A DNA stretch of 43,676 bases from Bacillales bacterium UBA6331. Lineage in GTDB: Bacteria > Bacillota_I > Bacilli_A > RF39 > UBA660. The translations under genes were made by a program, and so were the position numbers. Position 1 is the first letter of the stretch. Each line of letters opens with the position of its first letter. The notes under the pieces are model-generated. The model worked only from the letters and a program-made list of their open reading frames with translations. It had not been told where the DNA came from and made no database searches. Positions 1,488-43,606 of this stretch are shown in pieces. The stretch covers positions 1 through 43,676 of the forward strand of contig DJSP01000086.1 of assembly GCA_002438065.1 (NCBI GenBank), in the 5' to 3' direction.

Positions 1488-4400
1488 ATGGTTTTAACTA
1501 GTGAAGAGATAAAATCTAAAGATTTTGAATTATTAAAATTATATCAAAATCAAGTTAATGAACTATTACAAAAAGATAAATATATCTCTAAAAAAGAATA
1601 TCTAAAAATATATAAACAGCTAACACCCATAATTCATAAACTAAAAATAATGGAAAAAGAATCTATGCTTGAACTATGGTGTCAAAAAAATAAAGTAGAT
1701 TACTACGAAATAAAAAGTCTCATTAACTTCTATACAAACACTAATAAAATAATAGATGATAAAAACACACTTTATGTAAATAAACATTTAGAACTTGATA
1801 AAGAATACTTAGACACTATTCTTGCTAAAGAAGATCCAAATATTAAATTAGATAAAGAACAAAGAAAAGTAATCCTTTCTGATGAAGATTATACATTAGT
1901 GGTTGCGGGTGCAGGATCAGGAAAAACAACTACCATTGAAGCCAAAGTTAAATATCTTATTGAAAAACAGCGCATTGATCCAAATCGTATCTTAATAATC
2001 TCCTTTACTAGAAAAGCAACTAATGAATTACAAACAAGATGTAAGACCCTAGGGCTTCCTGCTAAAATATCAACCTTTCACTCTCTAGCTAATCAAGTTA
2101 TTGGATCAAATGAAGAATCCCATCATCAAATCACAACTGGAGATTTAATGTTCAAAACCATTAAAGAATATCTTATTAACAATGAAAACGATGAAGATTT
2201 TGTTAAAAAGATTCTTCTATTCTTTGCCAGTTACTTAAATGTCCCATTTGGCGAAGAAAATATAAGTTTATTATTCTCAGAACTAGCTAAAAACGATTGC
2301 ACAACCTTAAAATCTGACATAACAGCATCTCTTAATGAATTTAATAAAAAACAAATCAGTCAAAAATATACTTTAAAAAATGAAAAAGTTAAAAGTGTTG
2401 AAGAATGTCGTATTGCAAATTTCTTGTACATTAATGGTATAGACTATGAATATGAACCTGTCTATAAATATTGTTTTACCAATACAACAAAACCATACTG
2501 CCCAGATTTTATAATTAGACAATATGATAAAGAAATATATCTTGAACATTTTGGAATATCCGAAAGTGGAGAAAATCCTAGATATACTAAAGAAGAACTA
2601 GAACTTTACAAAAAACATGTTAATGACAAAATAATTTTCCACAGAGAACACGGGACTAAATTAATTTATACATTTTCAAAATATAATGACCATAAAGATA
2701 CAATAACTCATTTAAAAGAAGAATTAATAAAAGCAGGCATCTCATTCGAACCTAAAAGTCAAAAAGCAATTTACAAAGCTATCTTATCGAATTTAGAAGA
2801 TAAATATTTTAACAAACTAGTTCAGTTAATATGCGTCTTTATTTCTAGGTTCAAAACTAATAATTTTAGCCCATCCAAATTTGATGAATGGAAAATAACA
2901 TTATCAGATGAAAGAACAAAATTATTTATAAATATTTGTTATGAATGTTATTTAGCCTACTCTAGCGTATTAAAAAATACGGGTAGTATCGACTTTGAAG
3001 ATATGATTAATAATGCCTCTAATATATTAGATAAACTAATTGAAAAACACGAGGAGCTTCCATACGACTATATATTTGTTGATGAATATCAAGATATCTC
3101 TCTTCAAAGATTTAATTTATGTGAAAAATTATCAAAATGTTCTAATGCAAAAATAGTGGCTGTCGGCGATGACTGGCAATCCATATTTAAATTTAGCGGT
3201 GCTCAAATTGATTTATTTACTAAGTTTGAACAAACAATGGGTTATGCCAACATTCAAAAAATAACTAATACATACCGCAATTCCCAAGAACTAATTGATA
3301 TAGCCGGCAACTTTGTAATGGCAAATAAATATCAAATATCCAAAAAATTAAAATCAAATAAATCTATAAAAAATCCCGTTATTTTAATGACATATAATGA
3401 TAAAACAGACTACATCTCATACAAAGAAGGCGATACAGTAACAAAGAGATTAGGAAAAGCAATTGAACATGCCCTAGACAATATCGTTAAAGAAAATGGA
3501 ATAAATCAAAAAGTATTATTTATTGGTCGTTATGGATTTGAACAATATATATTATCAAATTATAAAAAAGGATTTACTTATAAAAGAAATAAACTATATT
3601 CCAACAAATATCCCAAATTAAACATTACCTTTTTAACTGCTCACTCATCAAAAGGATTAACATATGACAACGTAATAATAATGAATGGTAAAGATGCAAT
3701 TCTAGGTTTCCCATCAAGAATAGTCGATGATCCTGTTATGAAATTAGTTATCAAAGATGAAGAAAATTTTGAATATGCCGAAGAAAGAAGACTATTCTAT
3801 GTTGCTTTAACTAGAACCAAAAATAAAGTTTATATCTTAACTCCTAAATATAAACCATCGAAATTTATTTTAGAACTAAATAATAACTATAAAAATATTC
3901 TAGTAGTTGGTGAAAAAATAGAGTCAGAAGTTAACTATGGAAATTTACTAAAATGCCCTTTATGTGGCTATCCATTACAAAGAAGAAGTAATAATAACTT
4001 TAAAATCCCTGGAGAAATATGGATATGTTCAAATGATCCTGAAGTATGTGGATATATAACCAATAATCCAAGAGGTGGAAAAATGTCTATTTCTAAATGT
4101 CCAAAATGCTCTGATGGTTATTTGATTGTTAAAAAAGTTCAAAATTCAACTAAAGAAAAATATATTTTAGGTTGTACTAACTATTTAAAAGATGGAACCG
4201 GTTGTAATGCCTATTTAGTTGATAATAAATATACCCAAGATTTAGAACTAGTTAATTTAGAATTTTATGATAAAAATACTGATATTCAAAAATTAACTTA
4301 TTGTAATAAAAACTTTATAGAACTAGTAAACGCTATTATATATATTGTAAAATATTATGAAAAATATAAATTTAAAATAAGTCCTAGAACAATCTTAGAA

Positions 4401-4634
4401 ATATTAGTAGGTGCAAGTAGCAAACAAGTAGACGTATTCAAATTATATAAAAATAAATATTATGGTTATTTAAAAGTAGATGACAGGCAAAAATATTGGG
4501 CATTATTTAAAGCATTAACCAAAGAAGAAATTTTAAATATAGATGAAAGTAATTATAGTAATGTGACTGTCTCAAAAGATAAATTAACTTTAGATGATTA
4601 TAAAATTATTTATGCATCAATTAAAATAAGATAA
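1488..4634 (+). CDS. UvrD/Rep (SF1, helicase IV-like) DNA helicase with an embedded PD-(D/E)xK-like nuclease insert and C-terminal topoisomerase-type zinc ribbons
   Basis: Helicase motifs: Walker A AGAGSGKTTT, motif II FVDEYQD, VGDDWQSIF, TYRNSQ, TAHSSKGLTYD, VALTRTK. Insert between motifs I and II: NFLYINGIDYEYEP...CPDFII...IYLEHFG. Zinc ribbons: CPLCGYPL...CSNDPEVCGY and CPKCSDGYL...GCTNY...GCN. SD AAGAGG before the ATG. Confidence 0.85.
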   Translation: MVLTSEEIKSKDFELLKLYQNQVNELLQKDKYISKKEYLKIYKQLTPIIHKLKIMEKESMLELWCQKNKVDYYEIKSLINFYTNTNKIIDDKNTLYVNKHLELDKEYLDTILAKEDPNIKLDKEQRKVILSDEDYTLVVAGAGSGKTTTIEAKVKYLIEKQRIDPNRILIISFTRKATNELQTRCKTLGLPAKISTFHSLANQVIGSNEESHHQITTGDLMFKTIKEYLINNENDEDFVKKILLFFASYLNVPFGEENISLLFSELAKNDCTTLKSDITASLNEFNKKQISQKYTLKNEKVKSVEECRIANFLYINGIDYEYEPVYKYCFTNTTKPYCPDFIIRQYDKEIYLEHFGISESGENPRYTKEELELYKKHVNDKIIFHREHGTKLIYTFSKYNDHKDTITHLKEELIKAGISFEPKSQKAIYKAILSNLEDKYFNKLVQLICVFISRFKTNNFSPSKFDEWKITLSDERTKLFINICYECYLAYSSVLKNTGSIDFEDMINNASNILDKLIEKHEELPYDYIFVDEYQDISLQRFNLCEKLSKCSNAKIVAVGDDWQSIFKFSGAQIDLFTKFEQTMGYANIQKITNTYRNSQELIDIAGNFVMANKYQISKKLKSNKSIKNPVILMTYNDKTDYISYKEGDTVTKRLGKAIEHALDNIVKENGINQKVLFIGRYGFEQYILSNYKKGFTYKRNKLYSNKYPKLNITFLTAHSSKGLTYDNVIIMNGKDAILGFPSRIVDDPVMKLVIKDEENFEYAEERRLFYVALTRTKNKVYILTPKYKPSKFILELNNNYKNILVVGEKIESEVNYGNLLKCPLCGYPLQRRSNNNFKIPGEIWICSNDPEVCGYITNNPRGGKMSISKCPKCSDGYLIVKKVQNSTKEKYILGCTNYLKDGTGCNAYLVDNKYTQDLELVNLEFYDKNTDIQKLTYCNKNFIELVNAIIYIVKYYEKYKFKISPRTILEILVGASSKQVDVFKLYKNKYYGYLKVDDRQKYWALFKALTKEEILNIDESNYSNVTVSKDKLTLDDYKIIYASIKIR

Positions 4635-4755
4635 GAACTATTTTTTAATAACACAAACCAAAATATCATACATACTAGAAACTACATAAAATGTAGAAAA
4701 TAGATCTCATATTTCTTAGCTCAAAAATTTAATTAAAATTATATGCAAAGACGTG

Positions 4756-4829: not shown

Positions 4830-6077
4830 ATGAGTAATATTCATGTGACCAGTGAAATAGGAAAATTAAAAAAAGTATTACTTCATAGACCGGGTAATGA
4901 GTTATTAAACTTAACTCCAGACACTTTGAATGAATTACTTTTTGATGATATTCCTTATTTACCTGAAGCACAGAGAGAACATGATATGTTTGCTAAGGCT
5001 TTAACGGATAATGGCGTAGAAGTTGTTTATCTTGAAGATTTAGTAGCAGAAGTAATTGATAGTAATGAAAAAATTCGTGATAAATTTATTCGTCAATTTA
5101 TTATAGAATCTGGAATTCATACTATAAAGTACCAAATTTTAACTTATAATTTTTTAGATAAAATAAAAGATTCTAAAAAATTAGTACTACAAACTATGGA
5201 AGGAATTCAAATTAAAGACTTTCCTTATAGAAAAAGGGAAGTAGAAAAAACTCTAGTAGATTTAGTAGATGAACCTGAAAAGTTTATAGCAGCTCCAATG
5301 CCAAATTTATACTTTACAAGAGATAATTTTGCAAGCGTTGGTGAAGGAGCAAATTTAAATCATATGTATTCAGTAACAAGAAACAGAGAGTGCATTTATG
5401 CTGAATATATCTTTAAATATCATCCAGATTTTAAAGATACACCTTTATATTATAATAGAGGTTATCATTGGCATACAGAAGGTGGAGATTTATTAAATAT
5501 TAATGAACACACTATAGCTATTGGTATTTCACAAAGAACTGAAGCATCAGCTATAGATCAAATTTCTAAAAATTTCTTTAAAGATCCAACTTGTAAAATT
5601 GATACAATTTTAGCATTTAATATTCCGGTATCTAGAGCGTTTATGCATCTTGATACAGTATTTACTCAAATAGATAAGTATACATTTACATATCATCCAG
5701 CAATTTCAGATACACTACAAGTATTTGAAATAACTGAAGGATTTGATCCTACAACTTATGAAGATTTAAATGTAAAAGAAGTAAAAGGGTCATTAAAGGA
5801 AATATTAGAAAAATATTTAGATCATCCAGTAACTCTTATTCCATGTGCTGGAGGAGATAAAGTAGCAAGTGAACGTGAACAATGGAATGATGGTTCTAAC
5901 ACATTATGTATAGCTCCGGGAGTTGTCGTTGTATATGATAGAAATGATGTAACAAATAAAGAATTACGTAAAGCAGGTCTGAAAGTAATTGAGATTTGTG
6001 GTGCTGAATTGAGTCGTGGACGTGGAGGACCAAGATGTATGTCCATGCCACTTGTAAGGGAGGATGTTGAATGGTAG
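4830..6077 (+). CDS. arcA: Arginine deiminase
   Basis: N-terminus [19 protein letters not shown] and C-terminal catalytic-Cys motif [22 protein letters not shown]. First gene of an ADI operon. Confidence 0.95.
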
Positions 6078-7066
6078 ATTTAAGAGGTAGAGATTTTTTA
6101 AAACTATTAGATTATACCCCTGAAGAGATAAGACATTTAATAGATGTAGCAATAGATTTAAAAAATAAAAAGAAAAAAAATATACCTCATAGATATTTAG
6201 AAGGTAAACAAATAGCAATGATATTTGAAAAAGACTCTACAAGAACTAGATGTGCATTTGAAGCTGGTGCTCATGATCTTGGAATGGCAGCAACCTATTT
6301 AGGCCCAACTGGTTCTCAAATGGGAAAAAAAGAAACTATTGAAGATACAGCACGCGTTTTAGCAAGTATGTATGATGGAATTGAATATCGTGGCTTTGAT
6401 CAAACAACAGTAGAAACACTAGCAAAATATAGCAAAGTACCTGTATGGAATGGTCTTACAAATGAATTTCATCCAACTCAAATGCTTGCAGATCTTATGA
6501 CCATCCAAGAAGAATTCGGTTCATTAAAGGGAAGAAAACTAGTGTTCTGTGGAGATGCTAGAAATAACGTAGCAAATTCACTTATGGTTGCATGTTCAAA
6601 ATTAGGAGTTAATTTTACATGTTGCGCACCGAAAACGCTTTGGCCAGATGAAGAGTTAGTTAATAAATGCAAAGAAATTGCTTATGAGACCGGTTCTGTA
6701 ATAAACATGACTGAATACATTATGGAAGGCGTAAAAGATGCAGATGCTATTTATACAGATGTATGGGTTTCAATGGGCGAACCAATGGAATTATGGAAAG
6801 ATAGAATTGAACTTTTAAGCCCATATCAAATAAATATGAACGTTATGAATAATGCTAACGAAAAAGCTATTTTCTTACATTGTTTACCTTCATTTCATAA
6901 TAATGAAACAACAATAGGTAAAGAAATAGAAGAAAAATTTGGAATAAAAGAAATGGAAGTTACAGATGAAGTTTTTGAGTCTAACAAATCTAGAGTATTT
7001 GAAGAAGCTGAAAATAGACTTCATACAATAAAAGCTGTAATGTTGGAGACTATGAAAAATGAGTAA
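6071..7066 (+). CDS. arcB: Ornithine carbamoyltransferase (catabolic context)
   Basis: Motifs STRTR ([10 protein letters not shown]), HPTQ and HCLP (FLHCLPSFH). Overlaps the arcA stop by 7 nt. Confidence 0.95.
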
Positions 7067-9443
7067 AATTGTTATTGCATTAGGAGGAAATGCATTAGGT
7101 AAAAATCCTCAAGAACAACATGATAAAATAGAAAACACAGTAAAATATTTAATAGATCTAGTACAGGCTGGAAATCAAATCGTTATTACGCATGGCAATG
7201 GTCCACAAGTTGGAATGATTTATGATTCTATGAAAGAAGATAAAATTCCATTTGCTGAAAGTGGAGCTATGTCACAAGGCTATATTGGTTATCAATTACA
7301 ACAATCTTTAAAAGATGAGTTAAACAAAAGAAACATAAAAAAAGAAGTTGTAACAGTAATTACCCAAGTAGAAGTAAATCCTTTGGACCCTGCTTTTAAA
7401 AATCCTACTAAACCAATAGGAGAATTTCTAACTCGTGAACAAGCAGTAGAAAAACAAAAACAAGATAAAGCCATTTATAAAGAAGATGCAGGAAGAGGAT
7501 ATCGAAAAGTAGTAGCATCTCCAGAGCCTAAGAAAATACTAGAGCTTAGTACAATTAAAAATTTAATTGAACAAGGCACCATAGTAATTGCCTGTGGAGG
7601 CGGTGGAGTACCTGTAGTTATGACAAAAACAAATGGCTACGAAGGAATAGATGCCGTCATAGATAAAGATAAAACAAGCGCATTACTTGCTAAAGATATT
7701 AATGCAGATACTTTACTAATATTAACTGATGTTGAAAAAGTATCTTATAATTATAAACAAAAAAATGAAGAAGAAATAAGTAAATTATCTGTAGCTGAAG
7801 CAAGAGTTGGTATTAGACATGACGAATTTAAAGAAGGAAGCATGTTGCCAAAAATAGAGGCTTCTATTGAATTTGTAAAAGCAACAGGAAATAAAGCAAT
7901 TATTACATCTCTATATAAAGCAAAAGAAGCCCTAGCTGGTAAAACAGGTACGGTAATTTATAAACCTGAAATAAAGAAAGAAGAAAAAAAGAAGAGAATT
8001 TCATTCTCTCTCAGTGCATTCACAATAATTTTAGCTTTAATATTTATACTTGCAATAATTACACATATACTTCCTAAAGCAACATATATTGGAGAAGAAC
8101 TCGTAAATGGTAGTGGAGTAGTAGGAGCAACATTAGCTCAAACATTATTAGCACCTATTCAAGGTTTTGCAGATGCTATTGATATTTGTGTATTTATCTT
8201 AATTCTAGGTTCATTCTTAAAAATAGTAAATTCTACACAAGCTATTGAAACAGGAATTCAAGTTTTAATAAAAAAACTTCATGGACATGAATTAGTATTA
8301 ATTCCTATACTTATGATATTATTTTCAATAGGTGGTACTACTTATGGTATGCTTGAAGAAACCGTTGGTTTCTATGCATTACTTGCTGCCGCTATGGTAG
8401 CAGCTGGTATGGATACAGTTGTATCTTCAGCAATTGTGCTTTTAGGAGCAGGATCAGGAGTTCTTGGTTCAACAGTAAATCCATTTGCTGTAGGTGTAGC
8501 AGTTGATGCAGCAAAATCCACATTACCGGAAGGAGTAGCTATTAATCAAGGAACAATAATTGGATTAGGAACACTATTATGGTTATCAACATTAATAATT
8601 TCCATAATATTCGTAATGCTATATGCCAAAAGAGTTATCAAGAAAAAAGGTTCAACAATATTAAGCCTACAAGAACAAAGAGACATGGAAGCTACTTATG
8701 GTGAAGATATTGAAAGAGCTGAAGCTAAATTAACAGGAAAACAAAAAGTAACCTTAATTTTATTTGCATTAACTTTTGTTATTATGATTATGAGTTTTAT
8801 TCCTTGGGAAGATTTTGGCATAACAGTGTTTGCAAACGCTAAAATATTTAGTTTATCTTGGTTAGTTGGTGTGCCAATTGGTCAATGGTATTTTCAAGAA
8901 GCAACTTTATGGTTTTTAATCATGACTATAGTAATTGCACTTGTTAATCGTATGAAAGAAAAAGAAATTGTAGATAAAATAATAGATGGTGCTGATGATA
9001 TGGTAGGTGTAATATTAATAATTGCACTTGCAAGAGGAGCATCAGTACTAATGAGTGAAACACACTTAGATAATTATATAATTTATAATGCAGCAAACTT
9101 ACTAAAAGTTTTACCAAAAGCAATATTTGCTCCATTAAATTATATTATACATGTTGGACTTTCTGTATTAGTTCCATCTAGTAGTGGACTTGCAACATTA
9201 TCAACACCAATTATGGCTCCAATTGCTCATCAAGTAGGATACAATGTTGAAGCCACTATAATGGGTATGGTAGCTGCAAACGGATTTGTAAATTTATTTA
9301 CACCAACATGCGGTGCAATAATGGGAGGTTTAGCTCTTGCTAAAGTAGAATACACAACTTGGTTAAAATGGGTATTTAAAGTGTTAGCTTGTATAATGAT
9401 TGCAAATTTAGTTATATTAACAATTGCAATGTTAGTTTTATAA
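7059..9443 (+). CDS. arcC: Carbamate kinase fused in frame to a YfcC/ArcD-type (C4-dicarboxylate anaerobic carrier family) polytopic membrane transporter
   Basis: The N-terminal ~305 aa carry [11 protein letters not shown] and [11 protein letters not shown]. From about nt 7990 there is a YfcC-like start ([20 protein letters not shown]...) and many hydrophobic helices ([17 protein letters not shown]). No stop or start codon at the junction. Confidence 0.85.
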
Positions 9444-25375: not shown

Positions 25376-25421
25376 TTATAAAAAATTGCTCGAACTTTAA
25401 CGCTTGAGCTTAATAAAAAAA

Positions 25422-25453
25422 ATATCAATTTCAAAATGAAGTTGATATTTTTT
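25422..25453 (+). terminator. Rho-independent terminator after tRNA-Cys
   Basis: ATATCAATTTC-AAAAT-GAAGTTGATAT (one mismatch) followed by T5. Confidence 0.65.
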
Positions 25454-25585
25454 AAAATTATAGTTGAAATAGGTAAGTTAAAAAATAAAGCAGGTAGCAA
25501 TAAGTTTAAAATAACAGCTCAAAAATGGATTAAAGAAAAAATGGAATAATTTAATCAAAAATCCACTTTTTTCATGTGCAATTTT

Positions 25586-27205
25586 TTAATTTTTTTTGCG
25601 TATGTTATTTTGCAAAAATATTACATTTCCAGTTGAAATATTCAAAGAATAATCAGCATTTAAAATTTCATTATATTTTCTATTATGTGAAATACTAATT
25701 ATTGTTCCTGGATATGATTCTACAAGTTCATAAATTAAATCTAATGCTTCCTTATCTAAATGATTAGTAATTTCATCTAAAACAAGAACGTTTATTTTAT
25801 GAAAAGCAATTTTAACTAAGTTTACTCTTGTTCTTTGTCCAGGAGATAACATAAAATATTTTTTATCTTTACCATTGTAATTAAAACCAAAATTACTAAG
25901 TAAGGTAAAAACTAATGAGGATTCTACTTTATCTAAACCTGATGTTATATATTCGTACACACTAATATTTTTATTATCTATAATAGTATCTTGTGATATA
26001 TATCCTATTTTAACATCGTTGCCAATTATAACTTTTCCTTCAATAGGTTTAATTAAACCAAGTATTGTTTTAATAAATGTTGTTTTACCACTGCCATTCG
26101 GTCCTTTGATATTAATTTTACTTCCAAAATTTATGTTTAAGTTAATAGGAAGAGTTTGAAATGAATCATATCCACATATTAAGTTATCTATATAAATGTT
26201 CTTGTTTCCTTTTTCATTATCTAATAAGTCTAAGAAAAAATTAATTTTTTTTCTTTCTTGGAATGTTGGAATATCTATCTCTTCCAATGCTTTTGACAAC
26301 TTAGAGACTTCAGAAGAACGAGTTCTTTCTTTAGCAAAATTGTTAGCAATTTTATCATTGTCATTGTGTGCTTTAGAATATGTGCCTCGATTTGACCAAT
26401 CCTTAGCCTTCTGTAATCTAGCCTTAATTCTCTTTCGTTCTTCTATTGCACTTAAATAATTTAGTTTATTTTTCTGATATTCAAGATCTTTTTGTTTTAA
26501 ATAATCTTCATAACTTAAATTATATTCATTTAACATACCATCAGAAATTTCAAATATTTTATTAACAATATTATTCAAAAATGCTTCATCATGTGAAACT
26601 ATTATAATGGTTTTTTTTAGATTACGTAAATAATTTTCCAACCAGTTAATTGCTTCGATATCCAGATTATTCGTCGGTTCATCCAATAATAAAATATCTC
26701 CGTTACTAAGAAGCATAGTACACAATAAAACTTTAATTTTTTCTCCGCCAGAAAGAGTAAAAATTTTACTATCTAAACTTTTATTTAAATGTAAACCATT
26801 TATTATATTTTGCAAATTATTTTCAAATGAATAACCATCAAGTAGTAAAAATTTATTTAATATATCACTATATTCAATCATATTATTTTCTGTTAAATTA
26901 TTTTCAAGTTCATGAAGTCTGATTTCTAATTTTTCAATACCTGTTTGATTTTTTATATAAACTAATATTGAAAAATTGTCAAATTCATGAGATATTTCTT
27001 GTTTTAAATATGCGATGGTTTCATTTTCTAATTTAATTTTTCCAGAGTCTAATTGTAGTTCATTTGCTAGAACTTTAAGAAGAGTAGATTTACCACTTCC
27101 ATTTGACCCTACTAATCCAACTTTTTCACCTTGTGCTAAATGAAAACTTATATTTTTTAATAATTCATTGTTATTAAATTCAATTTTTAAATTACTTACC
27201 TGCAT
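25586..27205 (-). CDS. ABC-F family ATPase (two nucleotide-binding domains joined by a basic helical linker, no transmembrane domain)
   Basis: NBD1: GSNGSGKST, LSGGEKIK, LLLDEPTNNLD. Linker of ~100 aa rich in K/R/E (EERKRIKARLQKAKDW...). NBD2: GPNGSGKTT, LSPGQRTR, LVLDEITNHLD. No hydrophobic helices. The ATG overlaps the upstream gene by 14 nt, with AAGGAG 10 nt upstream. Confidence 0.9.
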   Translation of the reverse strand: MQVSNLKIEFNNNELLKNISFHLAQGEKVGLVGSNGSGKSTLLKVLANELQLDSGKIKLENETIAYLKQEISHEFDNFSILVYIKNQTGIEKLEIRLHELENNLTENNMIEYSDILNKFLLLDGYSFENNLQNIINGLHLNKSLDSKIFTLSGGEKIKVLLCTMLLSNGDILLLDEPTNNLDIEAINWLENYLRNLKKTIIIVSHDEAFLNNIVNKIFEISDGMLNEYNLSYEDYLKQKDLEYQKNKLNYLSAIEERKRIKARLQKAKDWSNRGTYSKAHNDNDKIANNFAKERTRSSEVSKLSKALEEIDIPTFQERKKINFFLDLLDNEKGNKNIYIDNLICGYDSFQTLPINLNINFGSKINIKGPNGSGKTTFIKTILGLIKPIEGKVIIGNDVKIGYISQDTIIDNKNISVYEYITSGLDKVESSLVFTLLSNFGFNYNGKDKKYFMLSPGQRTRVNLVKIAFHKINVLVLDEITNHLDKEALDLIYELVESYPGTIISISHNRKYNEILNADYSLNISTGNVIFLQNNIRKKN

Positions 27206-27875
27206 CTATTCCACACTCCTTACATTTAGAATTTTTTTTCCAATTTATAATTTCTGCTTGATATGTGAATAAATTAAACATTAAAGTCTTACCGACTAAA
27301 CTTGTTTCCTTATATTTAGCAAAATAATTAATAATTTCATTGCTCACTAAACTAGAGATTAATAAACATAGAGGTCCAAATGATGGTACTGGTTCAACAT
27401 TATTTAAAGGTACTTCAAAACTTTGTTTTTCAATACAACTCAAACATGCAGTTGTTTTAGGCACAACAAAAGGTCCAATCATAGCAACATATTCCGAAAA
27501 GCTGCAAAATAATACTGGCTTACCATTTTTAACACATAATTTATTTATTAATCTTCTTATTATTCTTTGAGGTTTATCAACCGTGCATAATACAAAATCT
27601 GCTAGTTTAATTTCATTTATAATATCCTCTTCCTTGATTATTTTTAAATTTTTACATTTAACCAGACTGTTTGTTAACTTTTCTTTCATTATTTCTGTCT
27701 TTAATTTTCCCAAATCATTACAATTATATGGAAATTGTCTTATTAAATTAGATTCATCAACGACATCATAATCAACTAAAGTAAAATTATTAAATCCAGC
27801 TCTTTCTAAAACTATTGCTACATTGGCTCCAATACCGCCTAATCCAAGAATTAAAATATTTTTATATTTAAAATA
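27192..27875 (-). CDS. E1-like (ThiF/MoeB/MccB-type) adenylyltransferase domain. This frame is open but has no start codon before its nucleotide-binding loop, so it must be joined to 27851-28222 by a -1 frame change.
   Basis: Frame is open from 27875. It encodes ILILGLGGIGANVAIVLERAGFNNFTLVDYDVVDESNLIRQ (GxGxxG plus D.D.V..SNL.RQ), DLGKLKTEIMKEKL, and paired CxxC motifs (CLSC ... CKEC, ~74 residues apart). The track ORF (27192-27713) begins at an internal TTG. Confidence 0.85.
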   Translation of the reverse strand, partial: YFKYKNILILGLGGIGANVAIVLERAGFNNFTLVDYDVVDESNLIRQFPYNCNDLGKLKTEIMKEKLTNSLVKCKNLKIIKEEDIINEIKLADFVLCTVDKPQRIIRRLINKLCVKNGKPVLFCSFSEYVAMIGPFVVPKTTACLSCIEKQSFEVPLNNVEPVPSFGPLCLLISSLVSNEIINYFAKYKETSLVGKTLMFNLFTYQAEIINWKKNSKCKECGIDAGK

Positions 27876-28222
27876 TTAATTAAATATTTTATATTCATCA
27901 TTAAATATACTGAAAACAAATTTTGTCTATTATATTTTGTATCATTAATCAATCTTTGATATTTTTCAAATTCTATAATGAATTTTTCACCTACTAAATA
28001 ATCTCTTGCCGATTTAATTTCCTTCTTGTTAATACCAGTTTCTTCATTAACCTTATTAATTAAATCATTTATAGATATTGGCTTTTGTATATTATTGAAA
28101 ATGCTTAAAATACCTTCATCGTCGTATTCAATTTCTTTTCCAGTATCAGTAAAATTTCCCATTCTGATAATTTTATTGATATTATCTATATAAAATGGTT
28201 TGTTTTTATTTATTATTAACAT
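27851..28222 (-). CDS. PqqD/RRE-like peptide-recognition domain plus the start of the E1 domain (N-terminal part of the frameshifted RRE-E1 protein)
   Basis: Begins MLIINKNKPFYIDN... at the ATG 4 nt after GGAGG. A winged-helix-like segment (ISINDLINKVNEETGINKKEIKSARDYLVGEKFII) resembles PqqD-type RiPP recognition elements. It ends with the E1 N-terminal motif KYNRQNLF and stops (TAA 27851-27853) just after an A5 run. Confidence 0.65.
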   Translation of the reverse strand: MLIINKNKPFYIDNINKIIRMGNFTDTGKEIEYDDEGILSIFNNIQKPISINDLINKVNEETGINKKEIKSARDYLVGEKFIIEFEKYQRLINDTKYNRQNLFSVYLMMNIKYLINILNIKIF

Positions 28223-28240
28223 ATAACCTCCAAAAATAAT

Positions 28241-28262
28241 AGAGTTCAACACGTTGAACTCT
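28241..28262 (-). terminator. Intercistronic hairpin (probably a leaky terminator or attenuator) between the small ORF and the RRE-E1 gene
   Basis: Perfect inverted repeat AGAGTTCAAC/GTTGAACTCT. On the mRNA it is followed by AUUAUUUUUGGAGG, so the U-rich tract runs into the next gene's SD. Confidence 0.6.
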
Positions 28263-28281
28263 ATACTGTAATCAAAACCAA

Positions 28282-28347
28282 TTAACAGTTTTGATCAACG
28301 TGACAAGCAAATTTTACAACTCTTAGTTTTTTAACGCCAAATTTCAT
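28282..28347 (-). CDS. Unannotated 21-aa ORF, MKFGVKKLRVVKFACHVDQNC; candidate precursor peptide (or leader peptide)
   Basis: ATG 9 nt after a perfect AGGAGG. About 50 nt downstream of a near-consensus promoter. Followed by a hairpin and then a peptide-recognition-domain enzyme gene. Too short for the ORF track. Confidence 0.6.
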   Translation of the reverse strand: MKFGVKKLRVVKFACHVDQNC

Positions 28348-28403
28348 AACAATTTTCCTCCTTCAATTGAAAGCACAATATAATGATTCGACTTCTAGCA
28401 ATT

Positions 28404-28431
28404 ATTATACATTTTTTTATATTTTTGTCAA
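28404..28431 (-). promoter_or_regulatory. Near-consensus sigma-A promoter driving the small ORF operon
   Basis: On the minus strand: TTGACA (28431-28426), 16-nt spacer ending in TG, TATAAT (28409-28404). Confidence 0.65.
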
Positions 28432-28884
28432 TTTATTTGGCAAGTTTGACCAATTATGTAATAATAATTTTTTAAATAAAAATATTTATGCTAATATGAC
28501 TTTAATGGGGTGAAAATATATAATGCAATTAAATCTTAACGAAAATATATAAAATGTTATTCTAAATATTTTAAAAAAGTGATTTTCCAAATACGTATAT
28601 GTATGTTATGAATTAAATATATTGCTTTTATGCGTAAAATAAAAGAAAAGTGAATACTATAAATTTTATTATATATGAAAAAAATATTTTAATTTAAAGA
28701 ATATAAAAGTTTTGGTTACTTGGTTAAGTGATATTAAAATCATAAAAAAATATGCATCTATTTATATATAAATTGATATTAAAATATTAAATTTTTAAAA
28801 TTAGTTAATCTATATCAAAAATTAACTAAAAACATAAATATTTATGTTAAAATATAATATATAATTAATGAAAGAGGAATATCC

Positions 28885-29814
28885 ATGAAAACATGCGTAT
28901 TAATTTATAACCCCAATAGTGGCCACGTATTTAAAACAAAATATCTAAAAGAATATAAAGATATTTTAATAAAGAATGGTTATAATCCTAAATTTATTGC
29001 TACATGTTATCAAGGTCACGCCAAAGAAATTATATCTCACCTAGAAAAAGTAGATTTAGTTATAAGCATGGGTGGAGATGGTACCTTTAACGAAATAATT
29101 TCAGGTAATTTAGAACGAAAAGAGCCATTAATTGTATCCCATATTCCTGTTGGAACTACCAATGACATAGGCGTCATGTTTGGCTATGGAAAAGATGTTA
29201 AAAATAATTTAAAACTTTTACTTAAAGGTTGCATCAAAGAAATGGATATTTGCCTAATAAATAATCAACCATTCGTCTATGTTGCCGGTTTTGGTAAATT
29301 TATGCAAGTTCCTTATCAAACACCTCGTAAATTAAAGAAAAAATATGGATACATTGCCTACCTAATTGAAGGAATAAAAGACTACTTTAGCCCTACCAAG
29401 TTATATAAAATAAAATATAACGTTAATGGTATATCTAAAACAGGATATTACTCATTTATATTAATATCTAATGCAAATCGAATCGCAGGAATAAATAACT
29501 TCTATCGCAATGTTAAACTAGATGATGACCAATTTGAAGTCTTACTATGCAACTTTAATCGCCGCATTGATTTAATTAAAACATTCTCATTATTAATGAC
29601 TATGGATGCATCTAAAGTATCAGGCGTAGAATTCTATAAAACCAATCATCTTGAATTAGAGTTTGAAGATTATCCTAAGCATGGATGGTGTATCGATGGA
29701 GAAAAATTAAAATATCGAACTCTAAAATATGACATTAAAAATATTAATCATATCAAAATCATGTTACCAACTAAAAATATAAATAAAATATTTGTAAATA
29801 AAAAAATTGATTAA
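28885..29814 (+). CDS. Diacylglycerol/lipid kinase family protein (DagK/YegS-like)
   Basis: GGDGT motif (VISMGGDGTFNEI) and PVGTTND. SD AAAGAGG. Confidence 0.88.
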   Translation: MKTCVLIYNPNSGHVFKTKYLKEYKDILIKNGYNPKFIATCYQGHAKEIISHLEKVDLVISMGGDGTFNEIISGNLERKEPLIVSHIPVGTTNDIGVMFGYGKDVKNNLKLLLKGCIKEMDICLINNQPFVYVAGFGKFMQVPYQTPRKLKKKYGYIAYLIEGIKDYFSPTKLYKIKYNVNGISKTGYYSFILISNANRIAGINNFYRNVKLDDDQFEVLLCNFNRRIDLIKTFSLLMTMDASKVSGVEFYKTNHLELEFEDYPKHGWCIDGEKLKYRTLKYDIKNINHIKIMLPTKNINKIFVNKKID

Positions 29815-34477: not shown

Positions 34478-35680
34478 ATGGTAAAAAGAGAAAAATATTT
34501 ATCTCAAATTAGAGATTTTTATGATAAAGATATAATAAAAATAATTACCGGAATAAGACGTTCTGGCAAATCAGTATTATTAAAACAAATAATAGATGAA
34601 CTATTACAACTAGGAATAGACAGCAATCATATTATATATATCAATTTTGAAGATGTTAAATATGCAAATATAACTAATTTTATGGATTTAAATAATTATG
34701 TAACATCATATATGCAAGATGATAACAAATATTATTTATTTTTTGATGAAATCCAACAAGTTGATAAATGGGAAAAAACTATTGTATCGCTTAAATCTAC
34801 TCGTAACACATCTATTTTTATCACCGGCTCAAATTCAAAATTATTATCTGGAGAACTTGCTACTTTACTTTCCGGAAGATATGTATCATTTAGAATAGCC
34901 CCATTTAGCTTTAAAGAAATTGTTGAACTAAAAAATTTACAAACAAAAGAAGAAATAAAGCAAGAATTTTTAGAGTACATTTTATGGGGAGGAATGCCTC
35001 AAAGATTTGAATTTCCAAATGAAGAATCAATGAAAACATTTCTAAAAGATATATTTAATTCCATAGTACTAAAAGATATAGTTAAAAGATATAATATTAA
35101 GAATGTTACAATATTTGAAAGAATAATGGAGTATCTTGTTACCAATCCTTCACAAGTTTTTTCCATTAAAAATATGTTAGCAGAATTTGAAAAAGAAAAT
35201 ATTCCTATTTCAACTAAAACAGTTTATGAATGTCTAGATTATGCCGAAGTGTCAATGCTTATGATAAAAGCATCAGAATATGATATAAGAGGTAAAAGAA
35301 TATTATCCAGAAAAGACAAATATTATTTAACTGATTTAGGACTTGGCCAAATATTAAACACCAATAAAAAAGCCCAATATGGTGCTTATCTAGAAAACAT
35401 AGTTTTTAATGAATTACTATATAGAGGATATGAAGTAAGCATCGGAAATAATAATGGTAAAGAAATAGATTTTGTTGCAACTAAATATAATCAAAAAGAA
35501 TATTATCAAGTTTGTTACTATCTAAATGATGAACAGGTTGTGGAAAGAGAATTTGGTGCATATTCTGATATTAATGATAATTATCCAAAATATGTAATTT
35601 CAATGGATGAATTAGATTTTTCTCAAAATGGAATTATTCATAAAAATATAATTGATTGGTTATTAACTAAACAGCAATAA
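34478..35680 (+). CDS. AAA-type ATPase, AAA_14 + DUF4143 architecture
   Basis: Walker A GIRRSGKS, Walker B YLFFDEIQ, and the C-terminal DUF4143-like region typical of this family. Confidence 0.8.
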   Translation: MVKREKYLSQIRDFYDKDIIKIITGIRRSGKSVLLKQIIDELLQLGIDSNHIIYINFEDVKYANITNFMDLNNYVTSYMQDDNKYYLFFDEIQQVDKWEKTIVSLKSTRNTSIFITGSNSKLLSGELATLLSGRYVSFRIAPFSFKEIVELKNLQTKEEIKQEFLEYILWGGMPQRFEFPNEESMKTFLKDIFNSIVLKDIVKRYNIKNVTIFERIMEYLVTNPSQVFSIKNMLAEFEKENIPISTKTVYECLDYAEVSMLMIKASEYDIRGKRILSRKDKYYLTDLGLGQILNTNKKAQYGAYLENIVFNELLYRGYEVSIGNNNGKEIDFVATKYNQKEYYQVCYYLNDEQVVEREFGAYSDINDNYPKYVISMDELDFSQNGIIHKNIIDWLLTKQQ

Positions 35681-37935: not shown

Positions 37936-39156
37936 TTATTCCTTACAACTTAATACAGAAGATACCGGTATAATTAAATTATTATTATCTAAACTTATTA
38001 AATCATCATAAAAACAAATTATTCCCCCTGTTCCAATTTCTTTTCCTGATTTTTTTAAACAATCAAAATTTTTTATCATTGATTTATTAGGACTTGCCGT
38101 TTTTTTAATTTCAAATGGATACAACTTATTATTATTATAAAAAATCAAATCAATTTCATTCTTTTCCTTATCTCTATAATAAGAAATGTTAGGATTTATT
38201 CCTCTTGCGTTATAAGATTTAATGATATCACTTATTATATAACATTCTAAATAATGCCCAGCACTACTACTTAATTGTAAATCTCTTGCACTTTGCCATC
38301 CAGCTAAATAAGCAGCAAGCCCAGTATCCATAAAATATATTTTTGGTAAGTGAGTTAATCTTTTAATTTCACTTGATCTATATGGCTCCAATAAATAAAC
38401 AAGGCCAGAAGCAGTTAATACCGATAACCAAGCCTTAGCAGTTGGTACCGTAATCCCTGCATCAAGTGCAAGAGAAGTATAATTTAATTGCTCTCCAATT
38501 CTAGAAGCAACACTTACAATAAAAGTTTTAAATGCTTCTACATTTCCTATATCTAATATTGACCTTACATCTCTTGCAATATAAGTGTCTATATAAGATT
38601 GAAAATATACATTCCTATTAATTCCTTCAGTATTATATAACTCAGGCATTCCTCCATTATAAATAATTTCAAATAACTTATTTACATCAATATTTGGTGC
38701 TTTTTTTATGTTATTAGGACTAAATAATTCCTTCTTATTACATTTAGAAATTTCTCCATATGTAAAACTATTTAAATTTATTATTCCAACTCTTCCCGCT
38801 AAAGATTCACATGCATTTTTCATTAAATGAAATTGTTGAGAGCCAGTAATCCAATATAATCCTTTTGAATTAGATTCATCTACTTTAATTTTTATATAAT
38901 TAAATATTTCTGGGACATATTGTGCTTCATCAATTAATAGTGGAGCAGGATGTTCTTCTAAAAATAATTTGGGATCTTCCTTTGCTTGATCTCTTAAAAC
39001 TTTATCATCAAATGTAACATAATTCATATTATCTGGCTTTAATTTCATAAGTAAAGTTGTTTTTCCAACCTGCCTAGGACCAGTAACCAATAAAACTTTA
39101 AATGTTTTACTAATGTTCTTAATTATATCTTCTGCTTCTCTATATAACATAATCAT
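37936..39156 (-). CDS. AAA-type ATPase, AAA_14 + DUF4143 architecture (second, divergent copy)
   Basis: Walker A GPRQVGKT, Walker B LLIDEAQ, DUF4143-like C-terminal half. Confidence 0.8.
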   Translation of the reverse strand: MIMLYREAEDIIKNISKTFKVLLVTGPRQVGKTTLLMKLKPDNMNYVTFDDKVLRDQAKEDPKLFLEEHPAPLLIDEAQYVPEIFNYIKIKVDESNSKGLYWITGSQQFHLMKNACESLAGRVGIINLNSFTYGEISKCNKKELFSPNNIKKAPNIDVNKLFEIIYNGGMPELYNTEGINRNVYFQSYIDTYIARDVRSILDIGNVEAFKTFIVSVASRIGEQLNYTSLALDAGITVPTAKAWLSVLTASGLVYLLEPYRSSEIKRLTHLPKIYFMDTGLAAYLAGWQSARDLQLSSSAGHYLECYIISDIIKSYNARGINPNISYYRDKEKNEIDLIFYNNNKLYPFEIKKTASPNKSMIKNFDCLKKSGKEIGTGGIICFYDDLISLDNNNLIIPVSSVLSCKE

Positions 39157-40729: not shown

Positions 40730-42025
40730 ATGAATAAAAACAATAAAAAAACAATTTTATTTTTATCAATTTCAATTGTAATAATGTCTACATTGTTTAT
40801 TTCAATTGCTTATTCTTATTTTGTTGCCAAAATAAAAAATAATGAATCTGAATCTACCATATCTGTTGCTGGTGGAGAAATGATAATTAATTACCAAGAC
40901 AATACTGGTACAATTACTGCATCAAAAATAATACCATCATGGACAACTACAAAAAAGTTTACTGTTTCCGGCAAAAATGATACTGAAATAAATGATGTTA
41001 CAACTGATAATAATATGTATTATAAAATAGTTCTTGTAATAGATAATAATACTTTTAGTAAAGGTGCTTTAACATATAGCTTAGAACAAGACTCTTCTTC
41101 AGCAAGTAATGGACAAATGGCAACGAATACATCAGGCACAATAAATCAAAGTGGAGAACAATATCTAGGCCACGGTTACTTTTCAACAACATCCACATTT
41201 GTAAACCATACTTACAATTTAACAATATCATTTCCCGATACCGGAAAAGACCAATCAATAGATAACGCTAAATCATTTGCCGGTCATATTGTGATATCAG
41301 AATATACATTTTCAACACCATTTGATCAAGCTAGTTGGGATGAAATAGCAAATAATGTTAAAGCAGGTAAGGCTGAACAATTATATCCAGTAGGATCCGA
41401 AAAAGAAGTAAAAATAGATGGAAAGAGTTATACAGTTAGAGTAGCAAATAACACAACACCAGATGAATGTAACGGAGAAGATTTTTCCCAAACTGCCTGC
41501 GGATTCGTAGTAGAGTTTGTCGATATAGTTGAAAATAGAACAACTGGATTAACTAATGAAAATACTAAAACATATGTTGATAGCGAAATTAGAACATATC
41601 TAAATAATGACTTTTATAAAAAATTACCATCAGATTTACGTAGTTATATAATTCCTACTAATGTAAAATCTCTCATAGGAAACTGGAATGTTCAATTTCG
41701 AAACTATGAAGAAGTAACATCAAAAGATAAAATATTTTTGTTAAATTCTACGGAATTGACTGGAAAATATGTATATTATCCAACTTTCATTGCATCAACT
41801 AGACAATTAGACTATTATTATTCCAAACAATATGACAGTTCCACAAATCAATCCATTGCCATCAAACAATACAACAATAACGCTTCTAGTTGGTTACTTC
41901 GAGATAGATTAATACATATGGAAACTGGAAATGATTTAGTAGCAATCAATAATTCTGGATCAGCTACATACTTTACAACTTTAAATAATAGTTATGGAGT
42001 AGCACCAGCGTTCCGTATTGGATAA
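40730..42025 (+). CDS. Secreted protein with a SipW-cognate/TasA-camelysin-like N-terminus and a DUF6273-like C-terminal domain
   Basis: TM signal followed by AYSYFVAKIKNNESESTISVAGGEM (TasA-type signal/N-terminal strand pattern). The C-terminus has SWLLRD ... VAPAFRIG. Confidence 0.6.
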   Translation: MNKNNKKTILFLSISIVIMSTLFISIAYSYFVAKIKNNESESTISVAGGEMIINYQDNTGTITASKIIPSWTTTKKFTVSGKNDTEINDVTTDNNMYYKIVLVIDNNTFSKGALTYSLEQDSSSASNGQMATNTSGTINQSGEQYLGHGYFSTTSTFVNHTYNLTISFPDTGKDQSIDNAKSFAGHIVISEYTFSTPFDQASWDEIANNVKAGKAEQLYPVGSEKEVKIDGKSYTVRVANNTTPDECNGEDFSQTACGFVVEFVDIVENRTTGLTNENTKTYVDSEIRTYLNNDFYKKLPSDLRSYIIPTNVKSLIGNWNVQFRNYEEVTSKDKIFLLNSTELTGKYVYYPTFIASTRQLDYYYSKQYDSSTNQSIAIKQYNNNASSWLLRDRLIHMETGNDLVAINNSGSATYFTTLNNSYGVAPAFRIG

Positions 42026-42058: not shown

Positions 42059-43606
42059 ATGAATAAAATAAAAAAATATGAAATGCCAATATTAATTTCA
42101 ATTTCCATTTTAGTGTTTATTGCACTAGTAAGTGTTTCATATGCTTATTTTAAAGCTAGAATAAACAATTTAGAATCAGTTTCAACTATTGCGTTTACAT
42201 CTGGCGAAATGACTATTAACTATGAAAATAATTCTGCTGTCTTAACAGGTACTAATATTACACCTGGTTGGAGTACAACTAAAACGTTTACATTAAAAGG
42301 AAAAAACGATTCAAAACCAACCGATACACAACCAGATAACAATATGTACTATAAAATAGGTATTGCCGTTGATATTAATACATTTACACAAGATGCAATA
42401 AAATATTTGCTAGAAAAAGATAGCACATCTTCCGCAAATGGACAGATGCAAGATGCAACATATGGAAGTGTTCCTCAAACTGGAACTAAATATATTGGTA
42501 AAGGGTATTTTACTGAAACATCAACTTATGTAAATCATATTTATAAATTAACAATATCTTTTCCCGATAATGGCGAAAATCAATATAAAGATAATGATAA
42601 ACAATTTGCCGCTCATGTTGTAATAGAAAAGTCATCAAGTTCTGAAACTATTGATACACCATCAGTGCCAACTGCCACATATTACATTGCAAATTTATAT
42701 GAAACATCGGCAGATAATGAAGGGTTGGAACAAGATGATACAGATGATAAAAATATAAGATATGTAGGAGCAACACCAAAAAACTATATTAAATTTAATA
42801 ATGAAACATGGAGAATAATCGGCGTATTTAACGATATTACAACTATAGATGAAAACGGAAACAAAAACCAAGAATCATTGATAAAAATAATAAGAAATGA
42901 ATCATTAGGGGAATATTCCTGGGACACATGTGAATCTAGCATAAATTCAGGAAATGGAATTAATGAATGGAGCCAAGCTGATTTAATGTATGAACTAAAT
43001 TGTGATGGAAACGAAAATTCATTATATTGTCGTGAAGATATAGTAGATGGTTATTTATCATTAAATCCAACAACCGAATCACCAACATGGTACAATGGAA
43101 CAAACAATACAAAAACTGCAACTTATGATTATGGAAAAAATATAAAAAGCAGTGAAGTAGGTAAAATCGCAAATGTAATATGGAATTTAGGAGGCTATTC
43201 GACTGCTATTGTAACAGCCTATGATATGTATAACCATGAAAGAGGTTATGAATATATAAGTAATCCATCTGATGGTGAAAATAGAACAACAGAGTGGAAT
43301 GGAAAAATTGGACTTATGTATCCAAGCGACTATGGCTATGCATCAACTGATACAACATGTAGATCAAATTTAAATGATATAAGTTGTTCAAATTTAAATT
43401 GGTTATTTAATAATGAGCATCAATGGACACTAACACCAAGTTCAAATCTATCTACAGGAGCATTTTATTTATATCAAGCAGGATATTTTGGAAACAGGGC
43501 ATACGTTCGTAATACTGAAGCTGTTCGCCCAGTACTTTTCTTAAAATTTAATGTGGTCATAACAGCAGGAGTAGGAGAAGTAGAGGATCCTTATATCATT
43601 GGATAA
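42059..43606 (+). CDS. Paralog of the preceding gene: the same TasA-like N-terminal module with a longer, different C-terminal domain
   Basis: By eye the N-terminal ~190 aa match 40730-42025 at roughly half of positions (for example PDNNMYYKIGIAVD, SSANGQM, YVNHIYKLTISFPD). The C-terminus has QWTLTPSS ... AVRPVLFLK. Confidence 0.6.
   Translation: MNKIKKYEMPILISISILVFIALVSVSYAYFKARINNLESVSTIAFTSGEMTINYENNSAVLTGTNITPGWSTTKTFTLKGKNDSKPTDTQPDNNMYYKIGIAVDINTFTQDAIKYLLEKDSTSSANGQMQDATYGSVPQTGTKYIGKGYFTETSTYVNHIYKLTISFPDNGENQYKDNDKQFAAHVVIEKSSSSETIDTPSVPTATYYIANLYETSADNEGLEQDDTDDKNIRYVGATPKNYIKFNNETWRIIGVFNDITTIDENGNKNQESLIKIIRNESLGEYSWDTCESSINSGNGINEWSQADLMYELNCDGNENSLYCREDIVDGYLSLNPTTESPTWYNGTNNTKTATYDYGKNIKSSEVGKIANVIWNLGGYSTAIVTAYDMYNHERGYEYISNPSDGENRTTEWNGKIGLMYPSDYGYASTDTTCRSNLNDISCSNLNWLFNNEHQWTLTPSSNLSTGAFYLYQAGYFGNRAYVRNTEAVRPVLFLKFNVVITAGVGEVEDPYIIG

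Follow-up and report, generated by a model that had tools for sequence, protein, structure and literature searches.

The window analyzed here, positions 1 to 43,676 of contig DJSP01000086.1 of Bacillales bacterium UBA6331 (GCA_002438065.1), carries on its minus strand a very short open reading frame with its own expression signals, followed by a ThiF-family gene that is disrupted and by an intact gene for an ABC-F ATPase. The features, in the order in which they are transcribed, are as follows.

28404..28431, minus strand: sigma-70-type promoter, TTGACA (28431..28426), a 16-nt spacer and TATAAT (28409..28404).
28357..28362, minus strand: Shine-Dalgarno sequence AGGAGG, 9 nt before the ATG.
28282..28347, minus strand: predicted precursor-peptide gene, 21 codons plus TAA (ATG at 28347-28345, TAA at 28284-28282), with the product MKFGVKKLRVVKFACHVDQNC; the leader is approximately residues 1-14, and the invariant core C15-H-V-D-Q-N-C21 lies at the very C-terminus.
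28230..28264, minus strand: intrinsic-terminator-like hairpin (28264..28239, 11 bp, loop 4) plus T-tract (28238..28230), between the peptide gene and the enzyme gene.
27192..28222, minus strand: MccB-like ThiF/E1 adenylyltransferase gene (343 aa in intact homologues), here a pseudogene.
25586..27205, minus strand: ABC-F ATPase (539 aa, two ABC domains, no membrane domain), overlapping the E1 stop by 14 nt; intact.

A first-pass annotation made from the sequence alone had proposed that this unannotated ORF bears the expression signals of a RiPP precursor or bacteriocin gene, and all of the elements it described were confirmed at their positions. The promoter is the only 12/12 consensus match in 25400..29000, and its -10 hexamer ends 56 nt before the ATG. 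The hairpin, which is followed by TATTTTT, was the only terminator-like site found in the same 3.6-kb scan, against 0.3 expected. It begins 17 nt after the stop codon, so the earlier description of a hairpin that follows directly is slightly generous. A 21-codon ORF alone carries no weight here, as there are 66 ORFs of at least 20 aa in 7 kb; it is the signals together, and above all the conservation, that place this ORF far beyond chance. The DNA motif of the core occurs once in the window, with 0 expected, and no Rfam family matches the region.

Seventeen nucleotides after the T-tract, a GGAGG and an ATG (28222) open the ThiF-family gene (PF00899, 132 bits). Aligned with relatives, this gene lacks one T in the run at 27916..27913 and has a premature TAA at 27878..27876, where relatives have CAA, AAA or GAT. 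The first-pass annotation missed that the enzyme gene is a pseudogene. In an effort to determine whether the lesions reflect sequencing error, we inspected four assemblies from four samples. In all four, the 1282 nt from the promoter to the E1 end are identical to the window, lesions included. Together with the presence of two independent lesions, a 1-nt deletion and a C-to-T nonsense change, this identifies a fixed pseudogene rather than an assembly error. A programmed frameshift was also rejected, as there is neither a compensating indel nor a canonical slippery site. The downstream ABC-F, likewise missed previously, scores 378.6 bits against the NCBIfam model NF000355 for ribosomal protection-like ABC-F proteins, just below the cut-off of 380. 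Its best solved relatives are a mix of housekeeping and resistance proteins (YbiT, YheS, Uup, an ARE ABC-F, EttA and PoxtA), and it is not close to any characterized resistance ABC-F. The protein is found 100% identical on at least 20 contigs.

To test whether the ORF is maintained as a coding sequence, we collected homologous loci through the downstream enzyme only. A query rebuilt across the lesions, in which the two frames were joined artificially at the A-run and which served only for searching, finds 148 homologues, most of them 343 aa long and the best 88% identical over 100% of the length. A scan of one genome per species returned 31 loci, all from uncultured gut MAGs labelled Bacilli, “Tenericutes”, Erysipelotrichaceae or Clostridium sp. 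CAG:628. The 26 of these loci with sequence upstream of a full-length E1 all have the ORF, as 20-21 codons ending in KF[A/S/E]CHVDQ[N/H]C-stop, with one locus (L003) carrying a shortened form in which an in-frame deletion leaves MKFACHVDQNC next to a broken E1 and a broken ABC-F. In 24 distinct 66-nt coding sequences, codons 15-22 (CHVDQ[N/H]C-stop) vary almost only at third positions, with entropies of 0.05, 0.00 and 0.74 bits at codon positions 1, 2 and 3. All of the third-position changes are synonymous, and N20H is the only replacement. Identity is 87% in the core, whereas the 24 nt on either side of the ORF are only about 36% identical. Across 69 loci there are 38 distinct peptides, in which residues 1-14 vary but stay basic and hydrophobic, in line with the leader and core division proposed in the first-pass annotation. 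That annotation would have been contradicted had homologous regions conserved only an RNA structure and not the reading frame; the comparison came out the other way and shows selection on the peptide.

The expression signals are conserved as features rather than as sequence. TTGAC...TATAAT-like promoters sit at the same place in most homologous loci, and GGAGG-like sites precede the peptide ATG. By a strict rule, a hairpin with a T-rich tail follows the stop in 43 of 51 distinct loci, and the remaining eight have visible hairpins with weaker tails. The hairpin sequences are unrelated to each other, and the distance from stop to hairpin is 1-44 nt with a median of 13. An alignment-based consensus structure for the 5'UTR could not be obtained, while folding of individual sequences shows hairpins in many loci but not significantly in the window.

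We next asked what the peptide travels with. The cassette of peptide, hairpin, E1 and ABC-F recurs in about 60 gut-metagenome loci with unrelated flanks. The ABC-F follows E1 in 28 of 29 genome loci, while the flanking genes differ; no function could be assigned to one recurrent neighbor (c4). An independent scan of metagenome contigs, using only the DNA pattern of the core plus the stop codon, gave 43 hits, of which three are GC-rich chance matches and 40 are this ORF. In the 39 of these 40 with enough downstream sequence, an E1 gene starts 45-140 nt after the stop. Among these hits is a divergent clade that keeps CHVDQNC with different leaders, for example MIKSVKKVKAINDTPLLCHVDQNC from oral metagenomes, and also MIKNIKKMTKEEAIAVTCHVDQNC and MTTIEVKPVEEVSTTCHVDQHC, and whose E1 is only 28-32% identical. 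No ABC-F was detected in the sequence examined for this clade. In one of its loci (L075) a small hydrophobic protein, putatively a membrane protein, overlaps the E1 stop instead, and in another (L074) the E1 is cut by a transposase. The peptide therefore tracks the enzyme and not the ABC-F. Two further loci (L077 and L078), with an E1 at 32% identity to the divergent clade followed by an ABC exporter, had no CHVDQNC peptide upstream and are uninformative.

The enzyme family most closely resembles MccB. A profile built from 27 homologues and searched against the PDB hits MccB at 165 bits (E = 2.5e-47), well ahead of MoeB (99 bits), ThiF (89 bits) and PaaA (88 bits). The AlphaFold2 model is confident (pLDDT 90.4, pTM 0.87), and its best Foldseek matches are all MccB chains, with TM 0.77-0.80 over all 343 residues (about 355 aligned columns, and so including the N-terminal peptide-clamp domain), followed by PaaA; MoeB and ThiF match only the C-terminal 240 residues. 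Identity to MccB is nonetheless only about 23%. The enzyme has the MccB two-domain architecture, an N-terminal, RRE-like peptide clamp and an adenylation domain. Invariant in the family are the glycine-rich loop (GxGGxG), D151/D153, N159, Q163, K175, D216 and four Zn cysteines, which include the ATP/Mg and Zn ligands, as well as N5, K8, Y11 and G22-N23-F24 of the N-terminal strands, while R162 is nearly invariant (90% or more). A search for anti-phage E1-E2 systems with PADLOC gave only generic E1-domain hits of at most 50 bits, with no E2 or JAB partner.

Taken together, these data favor the interpretation, to which we assign a probability of about 0.78 in the absence of expression, peptide or activity data, that the ORF encodes the ribosomally made precursor of an undescribed family of peptides modified by a ThiF-like (MccB-like) adenylyltransferase. 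The gene is real and under purifying selection on its amino-acid sequence; the mechanism is inferred. In this model, the basic, beta-strand-like leader (M-K-F/I-x-V/I-K-K-h-x-x-x-K-F-x) docks on the clamp domain, and the enzyme uses ATP to adenylate a carboxylate of the core, either the free C-terminal carboxylate of Cys21 or the side chain of Asp18. An internal nucleophile would then capture the adenylate, most likely a Cys thiol (Cys15 or Cys21) giving a thiolactone macrocycle by analogy with GrcB, or alternatively an amide nitrogen as in EnfB or IndF. The strong promoter and the hairpin after the stop would yield a short, abundant peptide mRNA and a minority read-through transcript carrying the enzyme and ABC-F genes, as in mccA-mccB, where a terminator between the two genes sets the peptide:enzyme ratio (PMC4231749). 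The translationally coupled ABC-F most likely shields the ribosome of the host from the product, which implies a translation-targeting peptide. This last inference rests on the family assignment of the ABC-F, on its coupling in the main clade, and on its remaining intact where E1 has decayed (the window and the genome loci L025 and L030), the pattern expected of an immunity gene; the role remains conjecture. A bacteriocin, one of the possibilities named in the first-pass annotation, in the sense of a secreted antimicrobial, is not shown, and the lack of an exporter, protease or regulator in the conserved cassette of the main clade is odd for a secreted antibiotic.

ThiF-like RiPP enzymes are known to adenylate a carboxylate that is then attacked by varied nucleophiles (PMC12596934, PMC12150305, PMC12250964). 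Characterized chemistries are those of microcin C (an N-P bond on a C-terminal Asn), pantocin A, GrcB (a Glu side chain joined to a C-terminal Cys as a thiolactone), EnfB (macrocyclic imide or amidation) and IndF (indolylamide), and the predicted motif classes are NWYFI, VEGR, NICxxxK, CxxxC and GxxQY (PMC12250964, PMC11256085, PMC12150305, PMC12596934). None of these has a CHVDQNC core or an ABC-F partner. The microcin C7 system shares a very short precursor gene with its own strong promoter, an intrinsic terminator between precursor and enzyme genes, and an enzyme with a peptide-clamp N-domain and a ThiF-type adenylation domain with a tetracysteine Zn site. No leader protease is needed in McC, and none is seen here. 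The present precursor is 21 aa rather than 7, and there are no MFS exporter, aminopropyl-modification or MccE/MccF immunity genes. In the GRC-type system of Streptococcus pneumoniae (GrcA/GrcB), a ThiF-like enzyme with an N-terminal RRE acts on a peptide whose core ends in Cys with an acidic residue a few positions upstream (Glu35...Cys39 there, Asp18...Cys21 here), and the adenylate-then-thiol chemistry would fit (PMC12596934). The present cassette has no radical-SAM partners, stand-alone RRE, transporter or quorum-sensing regulator, its spacing is i+3 rather than i+4, and a second invariant Cys lies at i-3. The enterofaecin/WWIII and IndF (NWYFI) types and the predicted classes are likewise minimal clusters with precursors of about 20-30 aa (EnfA is also 21 aa) and a conserved motif at the extreme C-terminus activated by a MccB-like enzyme (PMC11256085, PMC12150305, PMC12250964), although they occur in Lactobacillales rather than in uncultured gut Bacilli MAGs, and with membrane transporters and peptidases where an ABC-F is found here. 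The motif occurs in no searchable paper, literature searches combining MccB, ThiF or RiPP with ABC-F found nothing relevant, and NCBIfam has no model for the peptide.

The best-surviving alternative, though an unlikely one, is that the ORF is a cis-acting ribosome-arrest leader peptide, in which stalling at the conserved KFxCHVDQNC-stop in response to an antibiotic or metabolite controls read-through of the hairpin and so induces the ABC-F, as leader ORFs regulate the resistance genes vmlR, lmo0919 and msr (msrD). The layout of a short ORF, a terminator-like hairpin and an operon containing an ABC-F is compatible with this reading, conservation is strongest in the last 10 residues before the stop, the part that would sit in the exit tunnel, and in many loci the hairpin begins within the footprint of a ribosome on the stop codon. 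ABC-Fs are also known within biosynthetic clusters, as in the self-resistance proteins OleB, CarA and LmrC, although no RiPP cluster with a dedicated ABC-F turned up in our searches. However, the ABC-F is never adjacent to the ORF, as the E1 gene with its peptide-clamp domain always intervenes, and the core peptide persists with a distant E1 in loci where no ABC-F was detected. Pairing between the ORF region and the 5' arm of the terminator is no better than for shuffled arms (median z 0.2, with 0 of 43 loci below -2), and the extra hairpin within the 3' end of the ORF seen in the window exists only in close relatives. This reading also leaves the MccB-like enzyme without a substrate. These analyses do not exclude a secondary regulatory effect of translation on termination, as shown for mccA (PMC4231749).

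A canonical microcin C-type peptide-nucleotide, in which the E1 attaches AMP or CMP through an N-P bond and the processed product inhibits an aminoacyl-tRNA synthetase, is less likely still. MccB is the closest solved relative by profile and by fold, and the gene-terminator-enzyme layout is the same, but the defining C-terminal Asn is replaced by an invariant Cys, and the penultimate Asn is His in several loci (L011, L017, L042, L064, L074 and others), so that it cannot be essential as in microcin C. No MccC, MccD, MccE or MccF-type genes are in the cassette, and an ABC-F would not be expected to protect a tRNA synthetase. Equally improbable is a small carrier or tag, whose C-terminus would be adenylated to form a thiocarboxylate (ThiS/MoaD-like) or to be ligated to a target protein (ubiquitin/Pup-like), possibly on the ribosome. 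E1/ThiF enzymes classically perform such reactions, the core is strictly at the free C-terminus, and the enzyme has family-specific invariant cysteines, C286 among them. There is, however, no Gly-Gly C-terminus, no beta-grasp fold is possible in 21 residues, no sulfurtransferase, E2 or ligase partner is in the cassette, and the N-terminal domain aligns with the MccB/PaaA peptide clamp of RiPP enzymes and not with carrier-protein E1s, which lack it. Finally, although twenty-codon ORFs are abundant in this window, a chance ORF overlying a conserved RNA element is refuted by the third-position-only substitutions, and is further opposed by the invariant stop position, the 38 peptide variants sharing one core, the absence of an Rfam match and the unrelated hairpin sequences.

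ThiF-like enzymes are an emerging source of new peptide chemistry, with five or six reaction types known, most of them found since 2021. The family described here combines an invariant seven-residue core, a 21-aa probable substrate that is easy to synthesize and a single enzyme, and it lives in uncultured, small-genome gut Bacilli that are absent from the RefSeq-based mining surveys, which is probably why it has been missed. It is possible, though tentative, that the three-gene cassette makes a C-terminally cyclized or activated peptide that acts on the ribosome, with the ABC-F as its dedicated immunity or partner factor. This would be the first RiPP family paired with an ABC-F and a new ThiF-like chemistry on a Cys-His-x-Asp-x-x-Cys core, and the cassette would be a natural peptide/ABC-F pair useful for studying how ABC-F proteins recognize and evict ligands. 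Because no exporter is present, the peptide might even act inside the producer as a ribosome regulator rather than as a secreted antibiotic. In this genome and in several others the enzyme gene is broken. The system is dispensable and often decaying; the strain in the window can at most make unmodified peptide while keeping the ABC-F, an immunity-only state, and under the tentative reading above such strains would be “cheaters”. The repeated decay of the enzyme while the ABC-F survives hints at producer/cheater dynamics in the human gut.

Three further regions of the window lie outside the peptide cassette.

7059..9443 (+), carbamate kinase gene of the arginine deiminase operon (arcA 4830..6077, OTC 6071..7066)
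34478..35680 (+) and 37936..39156 (-), two genes of about 400 aa for paralogous AAA-ATPase-like proteins
40730..42025 and 42059..43606 (+), two adjacent genes for paralogous secreted proteins

The carbamate kinase appears to be fused to a large multi-pass membrane domain (794 aa in total), an unusual fusion if it is real. The two AAA-ATPase-like genes flank a small region that includes a rubrerythrin gene, and they look like mobile or defence-associated ATPases. The paired secreted proteins share a similar N-terminal domain of about 190 aa and TasA/SipW-type signal peptides, while their C-terminal parts have diverged.

An uncharacterised protein of about 212 aa flanks the cassette in nine homologous loci, including distant ones (L006, at 4115-4753 on the minus strand, and L008, L010, L020, L021, L023, L024, L026 and L028), but is absent from the window. 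The protein has many invariant cysteines and a faint SAM-methyltransferase-like motif (Pfam E = 0.04), with no PDB hit and only weak, sub-threshold NCBIfam matches in a few members. It may be a tailoring or resistance gene. Additionally, a divergent copy of the peptide and the MccB-like enzyme gene (E1) in locus L055 (3260 nt) lies on a contig that also encodes relaxase/MobC-like proteins, which suggests that some versions are plasmid-borne or mobile.

Many homologous loci, L004, L006, L019, L023 and L059 among them, have a stem-loop between the -10 box and the Shine-Dalgarno sequence (often GAAAG...CTTTC), and in 19 of 48 loci the fold z-score is below -1.5. The equivalent 5'UTR of the window (28363..28403, minus strand) folds only weakly (z = +0.9). 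This element may be a 5' mRNA-stabilising hairpin.

The MccB-like enzyme gene of the window (27192..28222, minus strand) is a fixed pseudogene, carrying a 1-nt deletion in a T-run (27913..27916) and a CAA>TAA change (27876..27878), and is identical in four independent metagenome assemblies. The peptide gene and the ABC-F gene stay intact. Notably, the cassette decays repeatedly in other lineages (L003, L025, L030, L062, L071 and L074), where E1 is truncated or frameshifted or, in L074, cut by a transposase. Locus L003 has an in-frame deletion leaving an 11-aa peptide, with both E1 and ABC-F broken, while ABC-F stays intact in L025 and L030. The pattern resembles loss of production with retention of immunity.
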